Both the position numbers and the translations under genes were made by a program. This document shows, piece after piece, positions 39,313 through 63,582 of a stretch of DNA of 64,000 nucleotides (within the stretch, counting starts at the first letter, position 1; the number at the start of each line of letters is the position of its first letter). A model generated the notes under the pieces. It was not told the origin of the DNA and ran no database searches. It saw nothing but the letters and a program-made list of their open reading frames with translations. Source of the stretch: a virus; the IMG/VR virus record IMGVR_UViG_3300028377_000004, positions 63,575-127,574 of that record; one strand, written 5' to 3'.

Positions 39313-39885
39313 TTAGTCTTCTTCCATCGACAAATGAACAGCTTCTACGTCTTCCACGAAAATAGAACTGTCTCTTTCATAAAAAACTGTCCCATCATGA
39401 TAAGCTTGCCGGGCAAGGATGGAAATAACCATAGGGGTTTTGATTCTCCTTCGCTTTCCGTCAGCTATTGCTGCTCCAAAGTCATCAAAAATTTCTGTAT
39501 ATTTTCGACGCATAGGTTGAATCCCATATTCAGAAAGGGACCTATAATGCCTACGACTCTCCACCCGAAAAAGGACTTGGGAGGGAGGCTCAATAACTTT
39601 GTACCGAACTTTTTCTGTGGTGTGACCCACCAAGGCTCTGAGGGCAGTCTCATCATCTGAGATATCAAACCGACCCCTATTGGCGTTTGTAACTGCATCC
39701 AGAATCTCTTCTAATGTAATCTGATACGGCGTCATCTTCTCAAATCCCGTAAGAAGACTCTCCATAGGAACCCAGCCATCATCATTCATAACGAGATCAA
39801 GTCGCTCGGGTTCATGACGAAGGATCAATGCAATTTCACGAGCTAATTCAGTCTTCGTCAGTTTCATCATTATTTTCCGGGGCAT
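39313..39885 (-). CDS. kptA: RNA 2'-phosphotransferase (KptA/Tpt1 family)
   Basis: ILRHEP, DDGWV, RF.I...LRALVGHT and GIQPMRR; the usual HGT and VHL motifs are replaced by RVE and TEI. Confidence 0.8.
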   Translation of the reverse strand: MPRKIMMKLTKTELAREIALILRHEPERLDLVMNDDGWVPMESLLTGFEKMTPYQITLEEILDAVTNANRGRFDISDDETALRALVGHTTEKVRYKVIEPPSQVLFRVESRRHYRSLSEYGIQPMRRKYTEIFDDFGAAIADGKRRRIKTPMVISILARQAYHDGTVFYERDSSIFVEDVEAVHLSMEED

Positions 39886-41315: not shown

Positions 41316-43070
41316 TCATTCTTTTGGAGGTGTCATTATATACTCGATTTGATCCTCAGAGCATCCATAGTTAGCAAGCAATGCGGGCAAGTCTAATTGT
41401 ATAGGCAATTCGGGCTTCCTAACTATTAAACATGGTTCCCAGGCGGGCTTAAGGGCTGTGCCTAGTCCGTTAATGCTTTCTACATATTGATCGTCAGGAA
41501 GAAGGCACCACGAGCATACACGGCAAGTTAGATCATGGTCCTCATAGTCATCAAGGATCAATTTTCGATCTTGCTCTTTGTTGGAGTCTGGTCCCGCATT
41601 GATATCAAATAGGGAGTCGTCATAAATATAATTATCCTTTTCAGAGCCACACTGGCAGCGTGCGTTTCCTTCGGGACCGTACCTGCCATCTTTCTTGAGC
41701 TTCTTCTTCAAAATTTTGAAAACATTTTGACTTTTTGGGAAGCCGCTATTTCCACTAATGAAAATCCTTCCGTTACGACGAACCATTACAGCGCCAGTCT
41801 CTACTGTGACACACCACACGTCTCCTTCATAATGTTGTTTGTGATGAGCTTTTAAATGTTTACCCTGTAGTTGAGTCTTAGGATTATCGTGGAGTGATAC
41901 GCAGATAGCTTTTTCATTAATCCTACCCTGCAACCCAATCATGTGTGCAAGAGTTTGCATCTTTTCCAGATCCTCTAAGCTTTTTTGATAGAAATCAAAA
42001 CTGCCACGAGCAGTGCATCCATCCCCTCTCATAGCTGCATCAAAGAAAGCCAGCTTTTCTTTTTGAGTCATTTGCCATAAAAGATCCCAGGAAGGACTTT
42101 TATCTGGCAGAATTTCCCGAATCTGTAGTGCAGGATCTCCAGACATAAACCACATACATTCTCTTTCCCTACTATATTCCTTATGGTCAATGCTCATGCG
42201 AACAAGAAGATCCCTTATGGAATCTACATGTTCTTGATTGGTACAGGTCTGATAAATACGAACTCCTGTTCCAGAATTGTCATAACCCCCTTCTGTCCAA
42301 ATCCAACCAAGTAACGAAGCAAAGTCTTTCCCTCCAATGCCGGGACCTTCGTGGCGTCCTGATAATGGTAAGTTTACCGTATTCCACCGATTAATTTCAC
42401 CTGCTTCTTTAACCTCCCATTGATCCTCGAATGAGGTTTTACGGATACCATCGGTTTGTTTCCTGTGCAGAGGTTTAGCATAAACCCTATGGTTAGGGGT
42501 CAGAAGTTGGTCTGTATTGTCGTTTTTGAAATGGATCATATCTCCCTTATAAGGGGCTAGGATCTTTCGTTGTACGGGAACAAAACGAATTTCTTCTGTT
42601 TCAGGATCCCATGCTGCTACCTTATCGCCTTCCAAAACCTCTGTACCCTTTTTCCATCCTTCCGGAGTCAGGATATCTGTGTCATCACTATAGCATCCGT
42701 AGGCCCAGGCAAATATTTTTTCTACAGAAAATCCTGAAATTCGTAGGGATGCAGTCATAAGATCTAAAGTTCTTGTCCCTGAAAATACCGCTCCACGAGC
42801 ACCCGGTTTTAATACCCTCAACACTTCACGCCAGATCTCTGGGCCAGGCACAATTGAGTCCCAATTTGCGTTCATAAAACCTCCCCCTTTACCTGCATGA
42901 TCCCCTTCCTGAATCCAACTTCTTAAAAGTTCAACAGGATCAGGTTCTTGTCCAAGTCCGTAAGGTGGATCAGTAATTAAAACATCTACTGAGTTTTCCT
43001 CAAAATTTTCTCGAAGCACCTTAGCGGAATCTCCAATAGATAAATCAATCTTCAATTTTTTAGTCTTCAT
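41316..43070 (-). CDS. DNA methyltransferase, N-terminal (catalytic DPPY) half, containing an intein
   Basis: VDVLITDPPYGLG, REVLRVLKPG, AWAYG|intein|SGFPKSQNV and GTALKPAWEP. Confidence 0.85.
   Translation of the reverse strand: MKTKKLKIDLSIGDSAKVLRENFEENSVDVLITDPPYGLGQEPDPVELLRSWIQEGDHAGKGGGFMNANWDSIVPGPEIWREVLRVLKPGARGAVFSGTRTLDLMTASLRISGFSVEKIFAWAYGCYSDDTDILTPEGWKKGTEVLEGDKVAAWDPETEEIRFVPVQRKILAPYKGDMIHFKNDNTDQLLTPNHRVYAKPLHRKQTDGIRKTSFEDQWEVKEAGEINRWNTVNLPLSGRHEGPGIGGKDFASLLGWIWTEGGYDNSGTGVRIYQTCTNQEHVDSIRDLLVRMSIDHKEYSRERECMWFMSGDPALQIREILPDKSPSWDLLWQMTQKEKLAFFDAAMRGDGCTARGSFDFYQKSLEDLEKMQTLAHMIGLQGRINEKAICVSLHDNPKTQLQGKHLKAHHKQHYEGDVWCVTVETGAVMVRRNGRIFISGNSGFPKSQNVFKILKKKLKKDGRYGPEGNARCQCGSEKDNYIYDDSLFDINAGPDSNKEQDRKLILDDYEDHDLTCRVCSWCLLPDDQYVESINGLGTALKPAWEPCLIVRKPELPIQLDLPALLANYGCSEDQIEYIMTPPKE
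41748..42695 (-). mobile_element. Intein (316 aa) with LAGLIDADG-type homing endonuclease
   Basis: Starts CYSDDTDILTPEGWK; block B LLTPNHRV; LAGLIDADG-like LLGWIWTEG and DAAMRGDG; ends VWCVTVETGAVMVRRNGRIFISGN followed by +1 Ser. Confidence 0.9.
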
Positions 43071-57199: not shown

Positions 57200-57790
57200 C
57201 TATTTCCCGAAAACAGCATATTGCAAGGCATCCGATACACACCCTACCCAGTCTTCAGTAGCTATTATCTTGCTTTGATCAAGATATTGTGTCCCATCAA
57301 ATTCAAATAAGTACATTGATCTGGCATAGTCATATCCAAACCAGATATTGTATTTTCGGAAAAATTCCACCCTAAGTAGAACCTGTCCCTCATCCCCCAA
57401 ATATACCTGTTCTCTTTTAACAAAATTGTCAGGTTCCCTTGACAAATATTTCCTAGCTTGAAATTGAAAACTATTCATCAAAACATTAAGACCTTCCCTA
57501 TGAACGATCTTTATACACTGTCGAAAAAGATGTAGCCCTTGTTCCCAAGGAAATCCTAGAATCATCTTAGGGTAAACTTGGCGATTAGAAATAGGATTAA
57601 AATATTTTTCTAAGATATAATAGCCAGCAGCGGACATTTCAATATCCATCTTATTTCCAAAATATTCTATCTCTAAATCAGTAGGAAATTTCTCGAATTC
57701 CCGTTTACAGTTTGTAAGTATTTTAAAGCCCTTTGGCAATGAAAACAAGTCTGTATGATAAGAATTATTTTCCAAGCTCACTCTATTCAT
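57200..57790 (-). CDS. Hypothetical protein, paralog family member
   Basis: MNRVSLEN...FSLPKGFKI...FGYDYARSMYLF. Confidence 0.55.
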   Translation of the reverse strand: MNRVSLENNSYHTDLFSLPKGFKILTNCKREFEKFPTDLEIEYFGNKMDIEMSAAGYYILEKYFNPISNRQVYPKMILGFPWEQGLHLFRQCIKIVHREGLNVLMNSFQFQARKYLSREPDNFVKREQVYLGDEGQVLLRVEFFRKYNIWFGYDYARSMYLFEFDGTQYLDQSKIIATEDWVGCVSDALQYAVFGK

Positions 57791-58457
57791 CTTCATCACA
57801 TGAGGACCAAGGGCTTGACCATGGGTTGGTTCCCCTCTTAATCCTTTTTATTGCCCTAACCATGGGGGTAACTGCCCCTTTCCAAGTATCAGCGTCCAAG
57901 GTCTTCATACCGTCTCCAGTATCCATTCTGGCCAATATTTTCTTATCTCGAAAATGGTATCCAAGGGCACATTTAACCTGAACATACTGACGGTTAATTC
58001 TTGGTTGTAGAATAAACCCTCCTAAACAAAAACTTTTATCGGGCATACTCAGATTTACAAAATTCTGAACATCAGGAAAAAACTCAGAATTTGACTCCCT
58101 ATTTGAGAGACATTCTGACATGTGTGCCGCAGTGTGATGATGGAGTTCTTCTACCAGTGACTGGAGACGTTCCATAAAATCCGAAGGATTTGAGCTTACC
58201 TCAATCTGACAATTCCCCTGTGTAAAAACATTATTCATAGTAGCAAAAGGCCATTTAAATTCAGCTTTCGTATGTCCATACGCATCAATTTTTATGAACA
58301 TAGGAATACCAAAATACGATATCTCTAGTCTCCCTCCACTAGCCGTTCCAATAATCCCCATTTTACCCATGTCTATTTGATAAATCTTTAGACCTTGCGG
58401 AAGGGTAAAAGGTTGGAATCTAGTTTCGATAGCTCCTTTTAATGAAACATTTGCCAT
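57783..58457 (-). CDS. Hypothetical protein, paralog family member
   Basis: MANVSLKG...FTLPQGLKI...LGYHFRDKKILARM; TAAGGA RBS. Confidence 0.55.
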   Translation of the reverse strand: MANVSLKGAIETRFQPFTLPQGLKIYQIDMGKMGIIGTASGGRLEISYFGIPMFIKIDAYGHTKAEFKWPFATMNNVFTQGNCQIEVSSNPSDFMERLQSLVEELHHHTAAHMSECLSNRESNSEFFPDVQNFVNLSMPDKSFCLGGFILQPRINRQYVQVKCALGYHFRDKKILARMDTGDGMKTLDADTWKGAVTPMVRAIKRIKRGTNPWSSPWSSCDEDE

Positions 58458-58486
58458 AATTATTAGGTCCTTATTTAGAATGAAAA

Positions 58487-58612
58487 TGGGCACGGTGGGA
58501 CTCGAACCCACAACCGATCCGTTATTCGCCTTTCTGGGATTCGAACCCTAACTACCGATCCATATCGGGAGAGACGTGAGCGGATGGCTCTAACCAATTG
58601 AGCTACGTGCCC
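58487..58612 (-). tRNA. tRNA-Ile2/Met (CAU) interrupted by a 52-nt insertion/intron in the anticodon
   Basis: Acceptor stem GGGCACG/CGTGCCC-A73; D-arm GCTC AATTGGTTA GAGC; anticodon stem ATCCG/CGGAT; T-arm GTGGG TTCGAGT CCCAC. Removing 58525-58576 restores a CT-CAT-AA loop. C4:G69, U12:A23 and C29:G41 are Ile identity pairs. No encoded CCA. Confidence 0.85.
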
Positions 58613-58626
58613 TAACTTTTTACAGT

Positions 58627-58881
58627 CTAGCAAACTTCTTCGACGGAGTCCAGGGTCCATTTTCTTTGTGATACCTTATACCACGCCTTTTCCAGAGATT
58701 CCATTCCTTCTGACACTAATGAAACTCTTTTAATCTCAGTAAGTTGATCTTCTACTTCTTCTTGAAAATTTCCTTGTTTGTTTTTTGTCTTGGGGTCATC
58801 TGTCGAATTTCTCCAAATTGTACATCTTATCATCAGGTTAGATTCCTTAGTAATCCCATCGATCGCGCTGATTGGGGTCAA
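58627..58881 (-). CDS. Hypothetical protein (84 aa)
   Basis: Fills the gap before the tRNA; start uncertain. Confidence 0.35.
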   Translation of the reverse strand: MTPISAIDGITKESNLMIRCTIWRNSTDDPKTKNKQGNFQEEVEDQLTEIKRVSLVSEGMESLEKAWYKVSQRKWTLDSVEEVC

Positions 58882-59513: not shown

Positions 59514-59542
59514 ATCTTAAAACCTAGAGACTAAGATGTCAA
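59514..59542 (-). promoter_or_regulatory. Sigma70-like promoter (TTGACA-17-TAAGAT)
   Basis: Perfect -35 element, 17-bp spacer, TAnnnT -10; would drive the unit that includes the tRNA. Confidence 0.65.
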
Positions 59543-63533: not shown

Positions 63534-63582
63534 GAGCTACTTCCTTTTCTCAGGGTTCTTAGTATTTTCTCTCTCTTACACC

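Follow-up and report, generated by a model that had tools for sequence, protein, structure and literature searches.

According to textbooks, the tRNA introns of bacteria are group I RNAs that splice themselves, and tRNA splicing that depends on proteins is a feature of archaea and eukaryotes; to our knowledge, no introns other than group I are established for bacterial tRNA genes. The described introns that most resemble the one analyzed here are those of Lak megaphages, whose tRNAs carry introns described as "enigmatic"; of one of them it is said that it "may encode a tRNA" (Devoto et al. 2019, PMC6784885, Table S6). In this intron, that of a tRNA-Thr TGT gene, Rfam places a tRNA at positions 31 to 113 of the 114-nt predicted intron, and alignments with intron-less sequences are reported to put the excised stretch one nucleotide off the prediction (PMC6784885), which we read as a 3' junction lying directly after the inner tRNA. 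A survey of jumbo phages from 2026 repeats the remark on the Lak introns (PMC13037316), and no paper proposing a mechanism for the nested tRNA introns of phages was found.

The interrupted tRNA gene described here lies in a 64,000-nt stretch of viral DNA, referred to as the window (positions 63,575 to 127,574 of IMG/VR record IMGVR_UViG_3300028377_000004); positions below are those of the window, except where the prefix G000 marks positions on the whole contig. The 127.6-kb contig, with a completeness of 28% (CheckV; IMG/VR record), derives from a standard-code tailed phage of lake water; most of its genes are orphans, and the others include ThyA, DHFR, topoisomerase II, and a baseplate-hub/lysozyme hit. 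A single tRNA gene was seen on it, the interrupted tRNA(CAU), a 126-nt gene on the minus strand (58487..58612; Rfam RF00005, ARAGORN -i) that consists of an outer tRNA and a nested insert and occupies a 170-nt gap separating two co-oriented genes. The complete cloverleaf reported by the earlier note, with the loop CTCA-[insert]-TAA, was recovered by the Rfam search, in which RF00005 matched 58612..58487 (minus strand) over the full model (1-71) with 55.7 bits against a threshold of 29 and with a single 55-nt insertion in the anticodon loop. The 5' exon (58577..58612, minus strand) supplies the acceptor strand GGGCACG, the D arm GCTC-AATTGGTTA-GAGC, the anticodon stem strand ATCCG, and the loop residues CUCA (nucleotides 32 to 35), its end moving to 58578 if the cut falls after C34. 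The 3' exon (58487..58524, minus strand) supplies UAA (nucleotides 36 to 38), the anticodon stem strand CGGAT, the variable region CGGTT, the T arm GTGGG-TTCGAGT-CCCAC, the acceptor strand CGTGCCC, and A73, so that the anticodon region reads ATCCG-CTCA-[52 nt]-TAA-CGGAT. All outer stems are paired (7/7, 4/4, 5/5, and 5/5), and the 21 stem pairs and the conserved residues are without defect. The outer gene has no encoded CCA, and TTTT follows directly 3' of A73.

The genes around the tRNA are mostly orphans, the flanking open reading frames (ORFs) matched no Pfam or PHROG family, and no homing or other nuclease adjoins the gene. The 224-aa gene directly downstream (57783-58457, minus strand) found only itself among 5.8 billion proteins. 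Upstream of a 210-aa ORF, a promoter-like TTGACA-17-TAAGAT (10/12) occurs at 59514-59542 (minus strand), which, judged by its sequence, could drive a transcript across an 84-aa ORF and the tRNA; promoter-like sites are no commoner on this DNA than in shuffled sequences. Elsewhere in the window, a 584-aa ORF (41316-43070, minus strand) combines a DNA-methylase N-terminus with a LAGLIDADG-like domain and has PHROG hits across unrelated enzymes, a pattern typical of what would be an intein or homing-endonuclease insertion.

The insert shares its place in the anticodon loop with the group I introns of bacterial, plastid, and phage tRNAs (e.g., cyanobacterial tRNA-Leu(UAA)), but those introns are ∼200 nt or longer and contain the catalytic core P3-P9, whereas the insert has 52 nt and no Rfam intron or ribozyme match and is too short for a ribozyme of this kind. 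With the introns of archaea and eukaryotes, which are removed by EndA/Sen at a bulge-helix-bulge (BHB) and joined by RtcB or by Trl1 plus Tpt1, it has in common that it is short, ribozyme-free, located in the anticodon loop, and in need of an endonuclease and a ligase, and the phage also encodes a Tpt1. However, inspection revealed no 4-bp helix with 3-nt bulges on either side; a 4x5 internal loop lies opposite the junctions instead, and the interruption falls at 34/35 or 35/36 rather than at 37/38. Moreover, EndA (PF01974) was not found on the contig, which covers 28% of the genome, the host is presumably bacterial, and the ends expected here are 3'-OH and 5'-phosphate, in contrast to the cyclic phosphate and 5'-OH of archaeal and eukaryal splicing. 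The earlier statement that the insert is too short for group I and shows no canonical BHB therefore holds. Beyond the fact that the anticodon loop is interrupted, nothing speaks for a BHB intron of the archaeal or eukaryal type, for self-splicing by a ribozyme, or for an artifact of assembly, and we give these explanations almost no credence.

An artifact is contradicted by independent data. The same DNA is present in lake-water metagenomes from 2017 and in one salt-lake metagenome from 2019, and the insert is contained unchanged in three contigs whose runs are not the likely source of the record: X3 (532 nt, 58198-58729), with one difference outside the tRNA; X4 (151 nt, 58449-58599); and X5, from the 2019 salt lake (151 nt, 58433-58583). 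Because the same sequence recurs in independent assemblies, a misassembly of two tRNA genes, the failure that had been feared beforehand, is excluded. Among the metagenome contigs covering the locus, there was no contig skipping the insert, no intron-less allele, and no joined exons. Likewise, no orthologue of the locus was returned by blastn against the INPHARED phages or by pattern scans of IMG/VR and the JGI metagenomes; loci with relatives of the ParB-like neighbor carry no such tRNA, and a generic D-arm/T-arm pattern matched unrelated tRNAs only. A separate observation concerns a 202-nt salt-lake contig ("record 12" of run X5, compared with 58496-58605), on which lies another tRNA-like gene, whose anticodon arm is His-like. 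This gene is identical to the window tRNA over the D arm (19 nt) and over the variable region plus T arm (20 nt). Its acceptor strands show no in-register pairing, and the sequence at its 3' end, TTATTCGCCTTT, matches exactly the reverse complement of the 12 nt AAAGGCGAATAA, which span the 3' end of the window insert and the first exon bases. No longer copy of this gene was detected in the IMG/VR or JGI metagenome pattern scans.

Sliding the 52-nt deletion along the loop yields the anticodon CAU, CAC, or AAU, in agreement with the initial remark that other junction choices would give CAC or AAT; the frames 58525-58576 and 58526-58577 lead to the same CAU product, with the loop CUCAUAA. In intron mode, ARAGORN called the locus as Val(CAC) with a 52-nt intron. 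To choose among the anticodons, ATCCGCTCAYAACGGAT was scanned over one genome per prokaryote species. The T version of the arm, ATCCG-CTCATAA-CGGAT, had 92 sampled hits, which lie in genuine bacterial tRNA genes, mostly of Alphaproteobacteria and Elusimicrobia, with an identity to the joined exons of at most 63/74, and the bacterial tRNAs sharing the identical anticodon arm have GGGCC-type acceptors. The C version (CAC) had 22 hits, none of them in a tRNA, and Val(CAC) was accordingly rejected. Since the T version falls in tRNAs and the CAC version never does, tRNA(CAU) is the sole natural product. The exons carry C4-G69, U12-A23, C29-G41, A37, A38, and A73, which together with CAU make up the identity set of Escherichia coli IleRS, and the proposed CAU anticodon with Ile identity pairs is thus backed by the exon sequence and the 92 tRNA hits. 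By the E. coli rule, TilS, which places lysidine at C34, relies on C4-G69 and C5-G68; one of these two acceptor determinants is present (C4-G69), while position 5-68 is A-U. Judged by these residues, the product is probably a tRNA-Ile2 reading AUA and possibly an elongator tRNA-Met. AUA makes up 13.7 per thousand codons of the phage and 22% of its Ile codons, and an AUA-reading tRNA would therefore be useful.

In the frame first proposed (58525..58576, minus strand; sequence, ARAGORN -i, and minimum-free-energy [MFE] fold), the insert can be laid out as a shrunken tRNA. It begins with an "acceptor" 5' strand, CGUCUCU (58570..58576), that pairs at six of seven positions with 58527-58533 (C-G, G-C, U-G, C-G, U-A, a C/A mismatch, and U-A). 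After one linking C, the hairpin CCGAU-AUGG-AUCGG (58555..58568; MFE fold) replaces the D and anticodon arms, and the linker UAGU leads to an inner T arm, UAGGG-UUCGAAU-CCCAG (58534..58550). The "acceptor" 3' strand AAAGGCG with the discriminator-like A58526 (58526..58533) follows, and an extra A (58525) separates this residue from the 3' exon; all of these elements are on the minus strand. The MFE fold, with the closing stem CGUCU/AGGCG, the CCGAU-AUGG-AUCGG hairpin, and GGG-UUCGAAU-CCC, bears out the claim that the insert folds on itself. The second T arm, which had been called perfect, is so over its three G-C pairs, while its 5-bp stem also includes one U-G pair and an A/A mismatch. The 7-position closing stem is stacked on the T arm at tRNA spacing, and 10 of the 12 stacked positions pair, as counted by the script used for the stem pairs of inner units. 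The stability of the fold is unexceptional (z = -0.38; 72 of 200 shuffles fold as well), and the significance of the insert is therefore geometric rather than thermodynamic. By our own calculation, the chance of meeting the exact 13-mer T-arm consensus within 52 nt is about one in a million, and pairing of 6/7 between the 7 nt after the T stem and the 7 nt that open the insert, at exact tRNA spacing, would have a chance of ∼0.013. In an Rfam search of the insert alone (58522-58579, E ≤ 10), no tRNA match was obtained, and the matches touch only the 13-nt T arm, including mascRNA at an E value of 6. The T-arm consensus and the spacing of the closing stem are evidence that the insert is a degenerate, putatively tRNA-derived "minihelix."

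Such degeneracy is also what would be expected of a dead or dying gene, in which a nested tRNA copy, or a duplication of the 3' half of a related tRNA, sits in the loop, is never rejoined, and decays, the locus yielding at most tRNA halves and a small tRNA-like fragment. The mismatches, the missing Rfam tRNA hit, and the ordinary fold fit this explanation, as do a junction one nucleotide off the canonical RNase P and RNase Z sites, the lack of an orthologue that could show conservation in the sequence and pattern searches, and the resemblance of the insert's 3' part to the 3' half of the gene itself (GGATCGGT, GGGTTCGA, and TCCCA), as a duplication would leave. However, the acceptor strand of the insert differs from that of the outer gene and has its own complementary 5' partner, which a simple duplication of the 3' half would not provide and which suggests descent from a related tRNA. 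In addition, a dead gene should decay throughout, whereas here the outer tRNA is flawless around a decayed insert, and removal of exactly 52 nt restores the natural 17-nt anticodon arm. Considering these points and the covariation found in related loci (see below), we regard a dead gene as a serious rival, though an unlikely one.

To find comparable loci, IMG/VR was scanned for paired T-arm motifs lying nearer to each other than two separate tRNAs permit, and the resulting 168 loci (1.45 Mb) were tested. They were judged by our own cloverleaf test, the calls of ARAGORN in intron mode being often chimeric or ambiguous. Twelve further nested units that begin directly with the closing stem were recovered from the 168 loci. 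In 11 of them (L061, L064, two in L098, L261, L262, L267, L269, L270, L282, and L285), removal of the stretch from inner position +1 to the discriminator plus exactly 3 nt gives a canonical loop of 7 nt that has U33 and, at position 37, a purine; the extra 3 nt are CCA in seven units, CAA in two, and CCC and CGA in one each, and CCA is encoded by the majority of the outer genes. The remaining unit, L085, has an outer gene without CCA, the removed stretch runs from +1 to the discriminator with no further nucleotide, and its product is Asn(GUU), which fits G73, rather than the His called by ARAGORN. At the CCA-less window locus, the corresponding stretch is +1 to the discriminator plus 1 nt (unit of 51 nt, removal of 52 nt). 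By Rfam, seven outer tRNAs are full length with insertions of roughly 40 to 80 nt, and four inner units score as tRNAs (those of L061, L285, and L098 among them), the unit of L061 being a complete tRNA-Phe. The inner minihelices of L064 and L261 have the linker and the T loop in common, while all seven acceptor pairs and three T-stem pairs differ on both sides with pairing kept; these compensatory changes show that the stems are under selection there, and such structure-preserving covariation elsewhere in the class is a further argument against a dead gene. The outer anticodons in the class are Lys UUU, Asn GUU, Arg UCU, and Ile UAU/CAU. The window insert lies inside the anticodon loop of a complete tRNA and has a T arm and a 7-position closing stem, and no inner unit in the class is more degraded than its own, which has two non-pairs among the 12 stem positions. 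Going by these sequence features, we are fairly confident that it belongs to this class of nested tRNA-like introns of large phages, a recurring class that the earlier note overlooked, together with the position of the insert ends at or next to tRNA end-processing sites.

Several loci lie at the margin of the class. L021 (5027-5099) and L111 (6656-6727) look nested without giving a clean 7-nt outer loop and were left out of the count; like L047 (7914-8098, minus strand), they show complete or nearly complete tRNAs within tRNA-like flanks and may have decayed or been interrupted twice. The tRNA clusters with nested tRNAs also contain RAGATH-33, skipping-rope, and abiF RNAs (L282 6133-6245; L061 1708-1777; L085 2089-2125, minus strand).

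A second subfamily (L014, L090, and L114) is of the Lak type. Lak introns and the window insert are alike in being short, ORF-less insertions in the anticodon loop that combine a T arm with a closing stem resembling an acceptor stem and that have the 3' junction at or next to the 3' end of the inner unit. They differ in that Lak-type inserts carry an extra conserved 5' hairpin (ACAGRGUAAACUGU-like) and an A-rich linker, together ∼30 nt long, in front of the tRNA-like part, whereas the window insert starts directly with the closing stem and is shorter (52 nt) and more degenerate; in addition, Lak phages are gut phages with an alternative code. Thus, what is new in this instance is the absence of a 5' module, the CCA-less outer gene, the junction within the anticodon, the strongly reduced inner unit, and the occurrence in a standard-code phage from lake water. 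As a separate matter, the gene at L090 3284-3499, listed as "Tyr(GTA)" in Lak Table S6 and called "Ser(GCU)" by ARAGORN, becomes Asn(GUU) if the junction follows the inner 3' end, which would resolve the case of a class I tRNA with G73, and the published anticodons of intron-bearing phage tRNAs may need revision.

The phage encodes several enzymes of RNA repair. A homologue of the RNA 2'-phosphotransferase Tpt1/KptA (PF01885, 80 bits) is located at 39313..39885 (minus strand), and two further genes precede the start of the window: an AAA_33 polynucleotide-kinase-like protein (G000:40747-41886, plus strand; 86.7 bits) and a 708-aa fusion of a metallophosphoesterase with an RNA ligase (G000:55612-57738, minus strand). 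The phosphoesterase part of the fusion matches the solved metallophosphoesterase 4J6O (E = 1.3e-48), which we take to be the phosphatase domain of Clostridium thermocellum Pnkp, and its RNA_ligase domain scores 26.3 bits, just below the Pfam cutoff of 27. Among the complete genomes with nested tRNAs, G004 (170 kb) has a ligase of PF09414 and G005 (213 kb) has an Rnl1 (PF09511), and Tpt1, RtcB, and EndA are absent from both. An ATP-dependent RNA ligase thus accompanies nested tRNAs in three genomes, which is an association only, and ligases are in any case frequent in large phages rich in tRNAs. Given their absence from both complete genomes, Tpt1 and likewise RtcB were rejected as a requirement of the class.

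The acceptor stem and T arm form the minimal substrate of RNase P and RNase Z, both enzymes leave 3'-OH and 5'-phosphate ends, and ends of this kind need no healing before an ATP-dependent RNA ligase can seal them. In the mechanism that we propose, the gene would be transcribed together with its neighbors, and host RNase P would cut the 5' end and RNase Z the 3' end of the nested unit, leaving a 5' half with a 3'-OH and a 3' half with a 5'-phosphate. The outer acceptor, D, and T arms would keep the halves from separating, and the phage ATP-dependent RNA ligase (the Pnkp-type fusion) would seal the loop to CUCAUAA, with the interruption point of the anticodon lying at 34/35 or 35/36. In CCA-less precursors, the cut of some RNase Z enzymes directly follows the discriminator, in CCA-containing ones it directly follows the CCA, and the acceptor stem is all that these enzymes need (PMC7479834). 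These two cut modes match the two junction classes (+0, CCA-less; +3, CCA-like). As the reduced units keep the acceptor stem and the T arm and both complete genomes have a ligase, excision by RNase P and RNase Z followed by ligation is favored, and we hold it at just under even confidence that these nucleases excise the nested unit and the phage ligase seals the halves.

The window locus fits this scheme with an offset. With canonical cuts, 51 nt would be lost and the loop would have 8 nt; hence one cut must shift by one nucleotide, the options being a 5' cut one base upstream (CUC|A...A|AUAA, 34/35) or a 3' cut one base downstream (CUCA|...AA|UAA, 35/36). With its degraded inner unit, its ordinary fold, and no Rfam tRNA match, the insert may also be a poor substrate for RNase P and RNase Z. 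For the window tRNA, it is therefore narrowly probable, going by the gene's structure, that splicing occurs at all, and the RNase P/RNase Z/ligase route in particular is a tentative reading that stays a little below probable. For the class, this route cannot be a complete account, since RNase P and RNase Z alone are unable to remove the Lak-type 5' module of ∼30 nt. Two known situations resemble parts of the scheme. In mascRNA release from MALAT1 and in mitochondrial "tRNA punctuation," a tRNA-shaped module within a longer transcript is likewise cut by RNase P and RNase Z, but the flanks are never rejoined, whereas those of the window unit would need ligation into a second tRNA. In the repair by T4 Pnkp/Rnl1 after PrrC cleavage and in the bacterial Pnkp/Hen1 system, an RNA ligase, in the former case from the phage, seals a break in the anticodon loop, and the window phage, with its Pnkp-type phosphoesterase-ligase and kinase, is similarly equipped; such repair answers a host attack on mature tRNA, whereas the ligation proposed here would be the routine maturation of an encoded interruption.

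Option (a) of the earlier note, a protein-spliced intron served by the phage Tpt1/KptA, leads to a different chemistry: a dedicated endonuclease of phage or host would leave a 2',3'-cyclic phosphate and a 5'-OH, the kinase and phosphoesterase would heal these ends, the ligase would seal them, and Tpt1 would finish by removing the 2'-phosphate at the junction, as in a fungal- or plant-like pathway. The phage encodes all of the healing and sealing parts plus Tpt1, and the one-nucleotide offset from the RNase P and RNase Z sites poses no problem for such an enzyme. Nevertheless, no candidate endonuclease was found, EndA being absent on the contig and no nuclease lying beside the tRNA; the two complete nested-tRNA genomes manage without Tpt1 and RtcB; and the rule of the class, by which the unit is a whole tRNA from +1 to the 3' end, is left unexplained. 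The repair kit also has an ordinary role in countering anticodon nucleases (PMC7824862). We consider a dedicated endonuclease distinctly unlikely. Enzyme-mediated splicing without a ribozyme, as first suggested, is still most likely, while the tie to Tpt1/KptA is unsupported at the level of the class, where G004 and G005 have a ligase and none of Tpt1, RtcB, and EndA.

Anticodon nucleases also figure in the remaining explanation, which takes in options (b) and (c) of the earlier note: an unspliced double-T-arm decoy or a pro-tRNA that is immune to these enzymes until it is processed. An interrupted loop cannot be recognized by anticodon nucleases, and the outer anticodons of the class (see above) include typical targets of such enzymes. 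However, the insert of a decoy would not have to be of just the length that brings back a perfect natural anticodon arm, and complete, functional-looking nested tRNAs such as that of L061 point to processing, so that both forms of this explanation appear very unlikely.

Extending the RNase P/RNase Z/ligase scheme, we may be dealing with a third, ribozyme-free pathway of tRNA splicing in bacteria infected by large phages, whose nested units may have been born at the RNA level, an idea that we regard as doubtful. After an anticodon nuclease had opened the loop of one tRNA, a repair ligase would have inserted another, complete and mature tRNA there, and the product would have been copied into DNA; the CCA-less, worn unit of the window would then be the minimal structure still supporting excision.

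The class of nested tRNA-like introns is barely described, the literature consisting of unexplained remarks only (Lak megaphages in 2019 and jumbo phages in 2026). Standard tRNA finders miss such genes or misname their anticodons: ARAGORN in default mode reported zero tRNAs in the window and across the whole contig, and where genes were called, Val was given for CAU here and His for Asn at L085. As a consequence of missed and misnamed nested tRNA genes, phage tRNA inventories and arguments from codon usage are biased. With the most degraded inner unit and a CCA-less outer gene, the window locus is a stress test for the model. If the model is true, ordinary RNase P and RNase Z together with a "repair" ligase would constitute a tRNA splicing pathway, and phage RNA ligases would gain a routine job beyond repair in defense.
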